A stretch of DNA of 31,874 bases from a virus: positions 1 to 31,874 of IMG/VR virus record IMGVR_UViG_3300045988_165319, one strand, 5' to 3'. The notes below the pieces were generated by a model. That model saw only the letters and a list, made by a program, of their open reading frames with translations. It did not search any database and was not told the DNA's origin. Every line of letters starts with the position of its first letter. Within the stretch, counting starts at the first letter, position 1. Made by a program: the position numbers and the translations under genes. Positions 1 to 31,874 of this stretch are shown piece by piece.

Positions 1-54
1 TAGTAGTAGTAGTAGTAGTAGTAGTAGTAGTAGTAGTAGTAGTAGTAGTAGTAG
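1..54. repeat. (TAG)18 trinucleotide microsatellite at the left window edge
   Basis: Perfect TAG x18 read directly. The same tract occurs at the right window edge, so the window probably begins and ends inside one repeat tract. Confidence 0.9.
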
Positions 55-59
55 TCTAG

Positions 60-68
60 TTATCCACA
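60..68 (+). promoter_or_regulatory. DnaA-box-like 9-mer TTATCCACA upstream of promoter P0
   Basis: Exact match to the E. coli DnaA box consensus TTATNCACA. Identical 9-mers lie at 8504-8512 and 10886-10894. Each sits 30-40 bp upstream of an early promoter -35. Confidence 0.45.
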
Positions 69-109
69 GGCAGATGTCATAATTACTATGTTTTATGTGT
101 GGTTAGGGC

Positions 110-137
110 TTGCGTTTACGGGGGGGCGCGGTATACT
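110..137 (+). promoter_or_regulatory. Early promoter P0 (TTGCGT-N16-TATACT) driving ORF 174-530
   Basis: TAGGGCTTGCGT -35 block shared with P1, P3 and P4, then -10 TATACT, then SD TAGGAGG 7 nt before the ATG at 174. Confidence 0.6.
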
Positions 138-173
138 AATAATGTCAAAAGTTAATAGTTAGGAGGTTTTGAC

Positions 174-530
174 ATGAGTTACTTTTATAAGTGGCGACCA
201 AGCGCCGGCGCCAAGCGGGAATTTGCTCAGAAAATGGCTGAGGTGGATGAATTCTGTCGGTTGCACAACATCGACCAGAGCAGTAGTAGTGATAGTTACT
301 ATTTTACTCTAAACAATAAGCGCTATCGGGTGTCAAATCACACCCGTGAGGCTAGTAACGCCAAGGCGTATGATGTGTTTACTGGTGAGAAGCGGCGCGA
401 GTTCTACCACGACTTAAGCGACACTGAAGAGATTCAGATTTTCGCCGGTAAAACGCGAATTATTCAAATCTACAATGACTTGGTTGCCGGCTATGAGCTG
501 GATGGGCGTGGTCGGCGCAAAACTGCCTAG
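174..530 (+). CDS. Hypothetical 118-aa protein (moron-like, own promoter and terminator)
   Basis: ORF with good SD (AGGAGG-N7-ATG), preceded by P0 and followed by the intrinsic terminator inside DR-L. I recognise no domain. Confidence 0.5.
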   Translation: MSYFYKWRPSAGAKREFAQKMAEVDEFCRLHNIDQSSSSDSYYFTLNNKRYRVSNHTREASNAKAYDVFTGEKRREFYHDLSDTEEIQIFAGKTRIIQIYNDLVAGYELDGRGRRKTA

Positions 531-715
531 CCCCTCTCACCCCGCCCGTCTGGGCGGGGCTTCTTTACGCCCTTTATCTTATTATTGTGCGACATTAGGG
601 GTTAGCGTTAGGGCTATATGTTTATGTGTCTTTGCTTTTTATCGGGGCTTAGGCGGGCGCTGGTGCGGTCGTTTATCAGCATCGGTTAGGTGTCTTGTCA
701 AGGGCTACTACTGTT
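527..715 (+). repeat. 189-bp direct repeat, left copy (DR-L)
   Basis: Identical to 31587-31775 at an offset of 31060 bp, as far as I can read. It contains a hairpin terminator, the TTGTCAAGGG motif and the CTGGTGCGGTC 11-mer. Confidence 0.9.
540..570 (+). terminator. Rho-independent terminator (CCCCGCCC-GTCT-GGGCGGGG + T-rich tail) inside DR-L
   Basis: 8-bp GC-rich perfect stem, 4-nt loop, then CTTCTTTACGCCCTTTATCTT. It lies immediately after the stop of ORF 174-530. The same hairpin occurs in DR-R at 31600-31630. Confidence 0.7.
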
Positions 716-1597
716 GGTCTTCACCCGGGCGTCAATGCTGTTTTTTCTCACATGGGCGTGGCGGTTGCGCTTGGCTAGCAGTTGCCCTAGTTTAGTTGCG
801 CCATCCGGCGCTTGTCGGCGTTTTAGTTCTGTCATCTGGCTTAGAATATTGCCCAGCTCTTTTGTTAATAGTGCCGTATCTCTAGCGCCCACCCCTCGCT
901 GTAGCTGATTAGCTATCCGGTCTCTCATTGCCTCGAGCACTTTCATCTGCCCGCCCTCTTCTTTAGCTAGAGCAACAATATCCACTTTGTCAACGTCCTT
1001 AAGCCCGGCTTGGTATATCTTGTCCATGCGGTACGGGTGCGTGATGATGTCGTGCCAGCGACGCAAAGCGGCCTCAGCCTCGACGTTCAGCATGCCTGTC
1101 TGCAAGATGAGCTTGAGGCGAGCGCTTGGCATCGTCTTGAAGTATGCGAGCCAGTCGTCATATGTGGCGACGTCGGCGTCAAGTAGGCTGATGTTGTAGT
1201 TGGTCTCGAGCCATTGCTGGCATAGCAGTTGTAGCTCCTTTTGGCTCAGTTGGCACACCGCCTCGACGAGCTGTTCATACGATATCGGCTCATCAGGCTT
1301 ATGCTCCACATTGGTGGCTTTTGGTTTAGTTTCATCAGGCTTATGCTCTGTGATAGAGAGTTTATCGATACCCGTAATAAGCCCACTGCCCGCTAGCCCT
1401 AATACAAGCCCTATATGCCAAGAGATGCCGAGGTTTATTCCGATAGCTACCCCGATAGAGGCAGAGGCTAAAATTGTAATAGCCGACTCGATATCATTCT
1501 TAGCGCATCGTTTAATAAACTCCGTTGCCCCTATACAAGCAATTGTTATTGTTGCAATAGCGATTGCCGGTGTCTGCTTTAGTATTTCGCTTATCAT
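698..1597 (-). CDS. Holin-like membrane protein with a large C-terminal extension (299 aa)
   Basis: The N-terminal ~75 aa carry three hydrophobic helices. The gene lies directly downstream of the endolysin. The C-terminal 220 aa are unassigned. The last codons run into DR-L. Confidence 0.45.
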   Translation of the reverse strand: MISEILKQTPAIAIATITIACIGATEFIKRCAKNDIESAITILASASIGVAIGINLGISWHIGLVLGLAGSGLITGIDKLSITEHKPDETKPKATNVEHKPDEPISYEQLVEAVCQLSQKELQLLCQQWLETNYNISLLDADVATYDDWLAYFKTMPSARLKLILQTGMLNVEAEAALRRWHDIITHPYRMDKIYQAGLKDVDKVDIVALAKEEGGQMKVLEAMRDRIANQLQRGVGARDTALLTKELGNILSQMTELKRRQAPDGATKLGQLLAKRNRHAHVRKNSIDARVKTNSSSP

Positions 1598-1612
1598 CTT
1601 GTTGCCCTCCTT

Positions 1613-2290
1613 TTAGTTACAATGCCCGAATATAATCTGACCGTCTAGTGTTCGTCTAGCGATATAGCGCCAGTTACCGCTATTAGCCTTATAAACTACC
1701 CAGCGATAGCCGTTAGTGTCTATGTAGCCTTGATAATTCACTGATTGTCCTCGGTTGTAGGTGGCTACTACGTTGTTGCCGTTAGTATCAGGATTACTCC
1801 TCACCCTCAGCCCATCCACTTCTACATGGAATGTCCCATTTTGAGAGATTACCCCATTTGGCAGGTCTTGCCGTGGAGCTTGAGCCACTGGACGCTCCAC
1901 CACCCACTTATCCAAGGATGCTAGTTGCATACATTGCCCGATTGGGCGAGTGCCTTCGGTAGTGATTAGGGGGCGTTGCCCGTTTTGCTCAAAGTTGGTC
2001 TCACCTCTTAAGTCAATCCAGACGTGTCCATAACCATTGCCCATATTGCTGTTTGAGCATACTCTTAGCCAGCCATCGCCACGTTGCGCTACCCCGTCGG
2101 CTACATATGCGTTAATGACGCTTTTGGCGTTACCTCTTGCTTTCCAGGGGTTAGGTGCGCCGAGATAGTTTAAGAGTGCTTTTATCAGAGCAACACACTG
2201 ACCGTCCAGGTCATGATTGCTTTCATCCTTTACCTTCTTGCCGACCTGGTTTCTCAGCCAAGCTCTGACTTCAGCTTTACTGCGTGACAT
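1613..2290 (-). CDS. Endolysin: N-terminal CHAP peptidase/amidase domain plus C-terminal SH3b cell-wall-binding domain
   Basis: Catalytic Cys (DLDGQCVALIKAL) and His (GYGHVWIDL) are spaced as in CHAP domains. The C-terminal YRWVVYKANSGNWRYIARRTL is an SH3b-like fold motif. SD AAAGGAG lies 8 nt upstream. Confidence 0.7.
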   Translation of the reverse strand: MSRSKAEVRAWLRNQVGKKVKDESNHDLDGQCVALIKALLNYLGAPNPWKARGNAKSVINAYVADGVAQRGDGWLRVCSNSNMGNGYGHVWIDLRGETNFEQNGQRPLITTEGTRPIGQCMQLASLDKWVVERPVAQAPRQDLPNGVISQNGTFHVEVDGLRVRSNPDTNGNNVVATYNRGQSVNYQGYIDTNGYRWVVYKANSGNWRYIARRTLDGQIIFGHCN

Positions 2291-2328
2291 TCTGCCCTCT
2301 CCTTTCTCTTCTCGAGTTGTTTTCTTTC

Positions 2329-2336
2329 ATTATACA
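2329..2336 (-). promoter_or_regulatory. Late-type -10 (TGTATAAT) upstream of the endolysin
   Basis: Minus strand reads GGTGTATAATG about 40 nt upstream of the lysin ATG. It is a one-T-shorter variant of the TGTTATAAT late promoter family. Confidence 0.4.
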
Positions 2337-31066: not shown

Positions 31067-31072
31067 ATTATA
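31067..31072 (-). promoter_or_regulatory. TATAAT hexamer abutting the first ATG of the late block (possible leaderless-type start)
   Basis: Minus strand reads TTGGCTATAAT ATGGACAATATGGCA. There is no SD, and transcription would initiate at about the second ATG. Confidence 0.35.
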
Positions 31073-31143
31073 GCCAATAATCAGCCGTTTTGGCTACATG
31101 CCGTGTGGTTTATTCTCTGCCCGTTTTGTCGCTTTATTGTTAG

Positions 31144-31171
31144 AGATGGGCATGTACCCATCTTTTTGTTT
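31144..31171. terminator. Terminator hairpin AGATGGG-CATGTA-CCCATCT plus T-run (variant of the 15281 hairpin)
   Basis: Compared with copy B, the stem carries compensatory A>G and T>C changes. Followed by TTTTTGTTT. Confidence 0.6.
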
Positions 31172-31181
31172 AGGACGCCGT

Positions 31182-31229
31182 ACAGAGGCTCTGGTGCGGT
31201 CTGAGGGGGTATTTTGTGGGAGGGTAGGT
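31182..31229 (+). repeat. Conserved G-rich element, copy C
   Basis: TACAGAGGCTCTGGTGCGGTCTGAGGGGGTATTTTGTGGGAGGGTAGG. Confidence 0.85.
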
Positions 31230-31326
31230 ATCTCCCTTGACAACGCCCTCAATAAATGTCTCCAGATATTTTAGCTTTATACGGCGGACACAGCCCCGTT
31301 TTACAGTAGTGGGGACGCCCCCCTGT

Positions 31327-31346
31327 CTTGACGTCATGACGTCAGG
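31327..31346. promoter_or_regulatory. 18/20 palindrome CTTGACGTCATGACGTCAGG (two abutting TGACGTCA units), putative operator
   Basis: Read directly. It is flanked by inverted TTGTCAAGGG motifs and followed by a ~70-bp AT-rich tract. Confidence 0.5.
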
Positions 31347-31477
31347 TTGTTGTTTTTATATCTACAAAATGGGTTGAAAAACGTTTTTTATTCAATAAAT
31401 TGGTTGATCTGTCAAGCTGGGGCGGTGGGGGTTCTTGTTGGACATCAAGTGGGTGCTTTGTCAAGGGCTACTGCTAT

Positions 31478-31500
31478 TGGCTGGGGGCTGGGGCTGGGGA
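31478..31500 (+). repeat. (GCTGGGG)3 G-rich microrepeat; related GCTGGGGGCTGGCGCTGGGGCTG at 31778-31800
   Basis: Read directly. Both lie just 5' of a 189-bp-repeat-like segment. Confidence 0.7.
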
Positions 31501-31586
31501 TTAGTGTTCGGGTGGGGCTGTAAGCCCGCCCGGGTAGCCACTAATCGGCTCACCGACCACCTGGTCGCCCGCCTGCTGGCTAGGCT

Positions 31587-31775
31587 CTAGCCCCTCTCAC
31601 CCCGCCCGTCTGGGCGGGGCTTCTTTACGCCCTTTATCTTATTATTGTGCGACATTAGGGGTTAGCGTTAGGGCTATATGTTTATGTGTCTTTGCTTTTT
31701 ATCGGGGCTTAGGCGGGCGCTGGTGCGGTCGTTTATCAGCATCGGTTAGGTGTCTTGTCAAGGGCTACTACTGTT
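31587..31775 (+). repeat. 189-bp direct repeat, right copy (DR-R)
   Basis: Exact copy of 527-715. A partial extra copy of its 3' part (GTCAAGGGCTACTGCTATTGGCTGGGGGCTGGGGCTGGGG) lies at 31459-31498. Confidence 0.9.
31600..31630 (+). terminator. Second copy of the DR terminator hairpin
   Basis: Identical to 540-570 because it is part of DR-R. Confidence 0.6.
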
Positions 31776-31816
31776 ACGCTGGGGGCTGGCGCTGGGGCTG
31801 TAGCGCTCAGCCTCTG

Positions 31817-31874
31817 TAGTAGTAGTAGTAGTAGTAGTAGTAGTAGTAGTAGTAGTAGTAGTAGTAGTAGTAGT
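31817..31874. repeat. (TAG)19 trinucleotide microsatellite at the right window edge
   Basis: Perfect TAG x19 in the same orientation as the left-edge tract. This is consistent with circular closure or terminal overlap. Confidence 0.9.

Follow-up and report, generated by a model that had tools for sequence, protein, structure and literature searches.

The viral contig analysed here (IMG/VR record IMGVR_UViG_3300045988_165319, positions 1 to 31,874; this whole 31,874-nt stretch is called the window below) starts and ends in a perfect (TAG)n trinucleotide run. This raises the questions of whether the virus carries one microsatellite or two, whether the repeat belongs to its genome at all, and what it does next to the promoter that it adjoins. 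The left edge reads (TAG)18 at 1–54 followed by a T at 55, and the right edge (TAG)19 at 31817–31873 followed by a T at 31874 (the periodic run covers 31816–31874), both on the plus strand, as described in the original prediction. Tandem Repeats Finder scored both runs at 100% matches with zero indels, no other trinucleotide run of four or more units was found in the window, and (TAG)6 gave 27 overlapping matches compared with 0.00 expected from 100 dinucleotide-preserving shuffles. We found that both edges show one and the same tract, which has at least 19 units and was counted twice. The elements concerned are:

1 to 55, plus strand: (TAG)18 and a T, the assembler's 55-nt circular overlap, a copy of 31820–31874 that adds no units (prefix equals suffix)
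31817 to 31874, plus strand: (TAG)19 and a T, the single real microsatellite, at least 19 units in the window assembly (k-mer simulation)
31776 to 31816, plus strand: unique left flank of 41 nt (ACGCTGGGGGCTGGCGCTGGGGCTGTAGCGCTCAGCCTCTG) between repeat R and the tract, identical in three other assemblies (L001, L002 and L003)
31587 to 31775, plus strand: repeat R, copy 2
527 to 715, plus strand: repeat R, copy 1, 189 nt and 100% identical to copy 2, with a terminator hairpin at 540–559 after ORF118
174 to 530, plus strand: ORF118, an open reading frame (ORF) for a predicted, remotely AcrIIA5-like protein of 118 amino acids, with a ribosome-binding site (RBS), AGGAGG, at 161–166

The longest prefix of the window that is also its suffix measures exactly 55 nt, positions 1–55 duplicating 31820–31874, so that there is a single tract of at least 19 units and not one of 18 + 19 = 37. 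According to the CheckV paper (PMC8116208), a terminal repeat whose length is exactly 55, 77 or 99 bp is the k-mer overlap left behind when a de Bruijn assembler turns a circular path into a linear contig, and the figure of at least 37 units in the original prediction came from counting this overlap at both ends. When the window's own flanks were used in a k-mer simulation at k = 55 or 56, all tracts with n ≥ 19 had identical k-mer content, and the unit count in the window assembly is a lower bound. The k = 55 graph contains a three-node loop, of which one walk spells exactly 19 units, the right edge, and the left edge is the shared 55-mer. A tract longer than the assembler's k would have created the loop, the contig would have been cut there, and the 55-nt overlap would have remained at both ends. 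With 19 units, the circular genome would measure 31,819 nt.

The assemblies L001, L002 and L003 were retrieved from ENA by exact-protein look-up of the adjacent gene, and the record of L002 is labelled human oral metagenome. All three read ...GCTCAGCCTCTG-(TAG)n-TCTAGTTATCCACAGG..., that is, the flank at the right end of the window joined to the flank at its left end, with 19 units in L001, 21 in L002 (k = 127) and 9 in L003 (k = 119). Since ambiguity in the unit number starts only at n = 40 for k = 119 and n = 43 for k = 127 in k-mer simulation, the counts of 9 and 21 can be taken as exact. The L001 contig begins with a stretch of R that is exactly 55 nt long, indicating that it also came from a k = 55 graph and that its 19 units are a lower bound. 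The flanks showed 0 mismatches over 96–168 nt on the left and 591–846 nt on the right (about 760–940 nt in all) in all comparisons, and the tract was the only variable site in the compared region, with alleles of 9, at least 19, at least 19 and 21 units. L001 (31,896 nt) departs from the window sequence about 1,450 nt into the locus and is therefore an independent genome; the possibility that it was the same circle assembled at k = 77 was dropped on account of this divergence and of its 55-nt start in R. With both flanks joined across the TAG run in three independent assemblies, the claim that the contig was circularised through the tract is confirmed: the junction is genuine, the contig closes on itself through the tract, and tract length is polymorphic between human oral samples.

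The allele set consists of these four (window and L001 to L003). For further alleles, exact-protein look-ups of neighbouring genes gave nothing or only the same contig. No close relatives were found among GenBank phages (megablast), in IMG/VR (with the flank pattern, the ORF118 protein and a pattern of (TAG)5, five free positions and a DnaA box) or in the JGI metagenomes (two patterns).

Compared with the k-mer terminal overlaps that CheckV treats as direct terminal repeats (55, 77 or 99 bp), the tract shows the same 55-nt identical start and end and a closed sequence, with a junction confirmed by independent contigs. It differs from the usual case in that the cut is non-random, falling inside a microsatellite longer than k, which fixes the unit number only as at least 19. 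The overlap is also of low complexity, the class that CheckV flags as possible false positives, yet it is genuine here. A practical lesson is that low-complexity 'direct terminal repeats' of viral contigs can reflect real circular junctions; the repeat number cannot then be resolved at the assembler's k, and the apparent length doubles when both contig ends are read.

Variability in length alone, on identical flanks, is the expected signature of replication slippage, and the tract appears to be hypermutable, its length changing by slippage much faster than the flanks gain substitutions. The proposal of a slipped-strand mispairing site is thus in keeping with a real, length-polymorphic tract (9, at least 19 and 21 units). 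Slip-outs of (TAG)n are predicted to be weakly structured (−5 kcal/mol as DNA) and (CTA)n to be without structure, which is consistent with length changes in both directions. Its variable length could make the tract a natural marker with which to track strains of this oral phage.

To the right of the tract lies a promoter module that recurs in the genome:

60 to 68, plus strand: perfect DnaA box TTATCCACA, 5 nt right of the tract, the first element of the module
110 to 137, plus strand: promoter P0, with −35 TTGCGT at 110–115, a 16-nt spacer and −10 TATACT at 132–137 (five aligned module copies)
8504 to 8512, plus strand: perfect DnaA box 2, part of a paralogous promoter module that lacks a TAG tract
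10886 to 10894, plus strand: perfect DnaA box 3, likewise part of a paralogous promoter module that lacks a TAG tract

The module consists of the DnaA box, GATGT, an invariant GGCTTGCGT holding the −35 TTGCGT, 16–17 nt and the −10 TATACT. In an alignment of the five copies, the hexamers proved invariant or conserved, in contrast to the divergent spacers, and a simple consensus promoter scan picked a site overlapping P0. The module also recurs at about 4128, without a DnaA box, and is present in an 87%-identical ortholog (L005), whose box, TTTTCCACA, stays within the consensus TTWTNCACA and has a single TAG unit beside it. The promoter that had been proposed for ORF 174–530 is supported by four paralogous promoter copies, and the tract ends 55 nt upstream of its −35, at about −90 and beyond, in neither an ORF nor the core promoter. 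Conservation of the module begins at AGTTATCCACA, at the left edge of the box; the tract ends at exactly this point. Two of the paralogous modules sit inside the ends of upstream ORFs without any tract, and the other ORF118-family loci examined had no trinucleotide tract. As the other module copies lack a tract and L005 has one TAG unit, the expansion is lineage-specific and lies outside the conserved promoter unit. The three perfect DnaA boxes (60–68, 8504–8512 and 10886–10894) are on the same strand, with 0.24 expected on both strands, and each precedes the −35 of its paralogous early-promoter module by about 40 nt, an arrangement which suggests that host DnaA regulates phage early transcription.

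ORF118, the gene that P0 would serve, is predicted from profile and fold comparisons to encode a remote homolog of the anti-CRISPR AcrIIA5. Its AlphaFold model (AF2; predicted local distance difference test score, pLDDT, 88) gave only one notable PDB match in Foldseek, the top one, 6LKF (AcrIIA5; probability 1.00, E 2.4e-3, template modelling (TM) scores 0.44/0.38, root-mean-square deviation 5.1), and a profile of the ORF118 family searched against PDB sequences with hmmsearch matched 6lkf_A (E 3.3e-5, 27.2 bits). The family comprises more than 530 unannotated metagenomic proteins, and the contexts examined were phage-like. AcrIIA5 of Streptococcus thermophilus phage D4276 (6LKF) and ORF118 may have a similar fold, going by the predicted model, and they share a weak but significant profile similarity and the motifs REF/YAQxM and R-V/L-S-N-H; both appear to be small phage accessory proteins with a promoter of their own. 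In contrast, identity is about 21% and the TM score only 0.44, ORF118 has an insertion of roughly 16 residues and a shorter C-terminus, and, unlike AcrIIA5, it has no aca-like gene in its cassette.

As to what the tract does, we favour with moderate confidence the reading that it is a single tract, cut by the assembler, which would act as a tolerated hypermutable spacer. The circular (or circularly assembling) genome of an uncultured human-mouth siphovirus contains one non-coding (TAG)n microsatellite, whose length would be driven by replication slippage to 9, at least 19 or 21 units. The tract sits directly upstream of the conserved early-promoter module (DnaA box, −35 and −10) that would drive the AcrIIA5-like gene, placing 27 to 63+ bp of easily melted DNA at about −90 and beyond, where it would at most tune P0 or insulate it from upstream sequence. 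A role as essential on/off switch, origin or genome end is unlikely.

Several points weigh against a spacer that is simply tolerated. Perfect tracts of 19–21 units are far beyond the usual neutral upkeep in prokaryotic and phage genomes, and the maximum in a mycobacteriophage survey was only 9 trinucleotide iterations (PMC6426759). Every allele has at least 9 units, which hints at selection for a long tract. Pure neutrality does not account for the coincidence that the repeat unit is an exact DnaA-trio consensus (see below) and that a perfect DnaA box stands 5 nt away. Finally, the alleles number only four, and two of them are lower bounds.

The rarity of such tracts in phages, which the original prediction had stressed, was borne out by IMG/VR, where at least 119 of 2.9 million contigs contain a (TAG)n run of nine or more units, mostly in coding sequence. 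Among 80 other viral tracts of this size, 52 lie in open frames of at least 150 amino acids (poly-Ser or poly-Thr), 18 look non-coding and 8 reach at least 19 units; many sit in giant viruses, among the matches listed. No shared flank architecture was found when the non-coding (TAG)n tracts of other viruses were compared. The tract has precedents, unusual though it is, and it is rare for a phage to carry a perfect trinucleotide tract of 27 to 63+ bp whose length differs between samples while its surroundings stay invariant.

The alternative that survives best is a contingency locus, which we consider possible but rather improbable. The tract might be a slippage rheostat or switch, maintained by selection, for the AcrIIA5-like gene or for divergent neighbouring transcription, and might vary the spacing or helical phase between upstream R sequences and the DnaA-box promoter module. 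As in contingency loci, the repeat is perfect far beyond chance and its unit number varies on an invariant background, and its length and purity are extreme compared with other phages. It lies directly upstream of a promoter, and the downstream anti-defence-like accessory gene could profit from variable expression. There is also a precedent for a non-coding trinucleotide tract upstream of a promoter, namely the (GAA)n tracts of the vlhA promoters in Mycoplasma gallisepticum, which lie about 40 nt upstream of the transcription start site and have a demonstrated effect on expression (PMC6258824). These are the closest functional analogue, being likewise perfect, trinucleotide, non-coding and upstream of a promoter, and they vary between 4 and 27 units among isolates compared with 9–21+ for the TAG tract (PMC6258824). 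The TAG tract differs in being a single locus in a phage rather than part of a gene family and in its position, which argues against a switch: at about −90 and beyond, it is farther from its promoter and outside the conserved module. Moreover, the paralogous modules function without a tract, none is present in the ortholog L005, the alleles, of 27, at least 57 and 63 bp, show no helical-phase pattern, and no binding site was identified upstream of the tract. A TTGACA-like element on the minus strand of R was tried as a leftward sigma-70 promoter and rejected, as its −10 was unconvincing and the promoter scan did not call it. If length does affect expression, this would be contingency-type variation in a phage counter-defence gene.

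A further alternative comes from the sequence of the repeat unit. Read 3'→5', (TAG)n is GAT, the consensus DnaA-trio, and the complementary (CTA)n is a perfect array of 5'-TnnT-3', the motif that forms the DnaD recognition element (DRE; PMC10201434). In the basal unwinding system (BUS), a DnaA box is followed, after a spacer of at most 16 bp, by at least three DnaA-trios (PMC8287927). The locus reads 5'-(TAG)n-TCTAG-box-3' on the plus strand, with a spacer of 5 nt and a trio strand that runs 3'→5' away from the box. The box, for which two mismatches to TTATCCACA would be allowed, is perfect, and at least three trios of pattern NAN and of the right polarity lie within 16 bp. The orientation of the box is the opposite of the canonical one, in which the trio strand reads 5'-trios-spacer-TGTGGATAA-3'; here it carries TTATCCACA. 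The reference for orientation was the B. subtilis scaffold oligo oHM558, which reads ...TAGGGCCTGTGGATTTGTGGATAAGT. On the canonical side of the box, manual inspection of 69–102 revealed no run of three or more consensus trios, and a canonical DnaA-trio/BUS element was rejected on the inverted box orientation.

The tract might still be a DnaA-trio/DRE mimic, acting as an auxiliary unwinding element, as a DnaA sink or as a loading site for a DnaD-like or O-like initiator, but we attach little weight to this. It shares with the BUS of bacterial oriC the consensus trios, a perfect box, the spacer limit, the trio polarity and the TnnT complement (PMC10201434); its duplex ranks within the least stable 0.1% of all 57-nt segments in the genome; the phage encodes O-like and DnaD-like replication proteins; and the box of L005 has stayed within TTWTNCACA. 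Trio number is 9–21+ here compared with about 3–9 in the bacterial origins compared. Unlike a BUS, however, the tract is away from a chromosomal origin, and its box is inverted and part of a promoter module of which two further copies have no trios. In B. subtilis, box reversal inactivates incC and abolishes origin function (PMC6669920). The phage also has a conventional origin candidate elsewhere, at 5770–5900, and general pairing of (TAG)n with a DnaA box was rejected, as a DnaA-like box was found near 1 of the 80 other viral (TAG)n tracts of at least nine units, matching the roughly 0.75 expected by chance.

That single case (L097, IMGVR_UViG_3300034105_000798, 11456–11494) has (TAG)13, a 13-nt spacer and TGTGTATAA, and mimics a canonical DnaA-trio/DnaA-box unit. 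A neighbouring gene begins with a major-capsid motif which we take to be that of giant viruses (nucleocytoplasmic large DNA viruses, NCLDV), and the giant-virus type of L097 makes the resemblance coincidental. We are equally doubtful of the most elaborate form of the idea, a selected, hyper-expanded DnaA-trio/DnaD array with inverted-box geometry that would capture host DnaA or a phage DnaD-like initiator on transiently unwound DNA, its slippage tuning early anti-CRISPR-like transcription or replication timing between lineages. If the tract does engage DnaA or DnaD, origin-unwinding motifs would extend to phage regulatory DNA.

The candidate origin at 5770–5900 lies inside an O-like initiator gene (5409–6500) and combines a GC-rich palindrome and a pair of perfect 18-nt iterons (AACAATCGCAGAATGTGC) with the AT-rich stretch that is the least stable of the genome, features that point to a replication origin of lambdoid type. 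The classical lambdoid origin is situated inside the O-like initiator gene.

We consider it very unlikely that the tract, or the arrangement of R, cassette and R around it, marks a physical genome terminus or packaging signal (a cos or pac site, or a virion terminal repeat). The two R copies are direct repeats and bracket a cassette of roughly 570 nt that comprises the tract, the promoter and ORF118. A gene on the minus strand at 698–1597 with weak similarity to small terminases (phrog_1459, E 2.7e-7) adjoins this cassette, and several assemblies break in the region; the Pfam domains of TerL were uninformative on packaging type. Graph repeats account fully for every contig break (the contig ends either exactly k nt into R or in a tract that exceeds k), the tract is read through in three contigs, and a terminus signal of variable length would be unusual. 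L002 and L003 start and end exactly k nt into R, so that R is a true repeat in independent graphs, and it behaved as a graph repeat in three independent assemblies. Homologous recombination between the R copies could delete or amplify the cassette.

An artefact of assembly, library or synthetic origin (a low-complexity bridge, adapter or stop-codon linker), which the original prediction had left open and for which the tract at both contig edges and the known false circularisation through low-complexity terminal repeats (PMC8116208) might speak, is ruled out for practical purposes by the read-through contigs from different samples and k, in which the same junction has identical unique flanks in three other assemblies and the 119- and 127-nt k-mers span the whole tract plus both flanks, and TAG repeats, which stop only one of six reading frames, would make a poor stop linker.

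A coding repeat, that is, a poly-Ser, poly-Leu or poly-Thr stretch of a small protein, has next to no probability: although Prodigal called a 59-residue partial gene across the tract at the L001 contig edge and 52 of the 80 other viral tracts are in long open frames, the stop-free stretches across the tract reach at most 62 amino acids in all five open frames, with no ATG or other plausible start codon and without the strong AGGAGG-type RBS used elsewhere in the genome. The tract is non-coding. No tRNA genes were found in the window and hence no amber suppressor; suppression or recoding was rejected for this reason and because ORF118 itself ends in TAG. No known RNA family was found at the tract junction.

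The genome is of siphovirus type, with portal, TerL, HK97-fold capsid, scaffold, tape measure, Dit and tail tube proteins, and it also encodes an endolysin with an SH3_5 domain, a ParB_N-methyltransferase fusion and the O-like and DnaD-like replication proteins. The nearest cultured TerL proteins are about 34% identical and belong to phages of Gram-positive hosts. A contig of 29,942 nt (CALIXD010000109.1), whose TerL is 99% identical to that of the window, was binned in a metagenome-assembled genome of Candidatus Saccharibacteria (TM7) from the same oral-metagenome project; a host in Saccharibacteria is possible, though weakly supported. From its TerL position and length, this contig is estimated to stop short of the region of R, cassette and R.

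The structural genes on the minus strand (15366–31066) are arranged as head closure, tail terminator, scaffold, capsid, portal, head protein, TerL, tail tube, tape measure and Dit. The usual order of a head module is TerL, portal, scaffold and capsid, and it appears to be inverted here.

Four rightward genes are preceded by members of a leader/RBS family, TATCATCAA(A)TGAAAGGAGGAATGATGAG, at 4169–4208, 6726–6765, 8578–8617 and 10959–10998. Their first codons are also conserved, which suggests duplicated expression cassettes. Directly downstream of ORF 4178–4909, on the opposite strand, positions 4910–5028 (minus) match the Rfam DUF3800-I RNA (RF02969) with 76.1 bits compared with a gathering score of 44.2. 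Lastly, the gene at 2330–3619 (minus strand) encodes a 429-residue fusion of a ParB_N domain with an N6/N4 DNA methyltransferase and lies upstream of the endolysin gene in a leftward operon that ends at repeat R.

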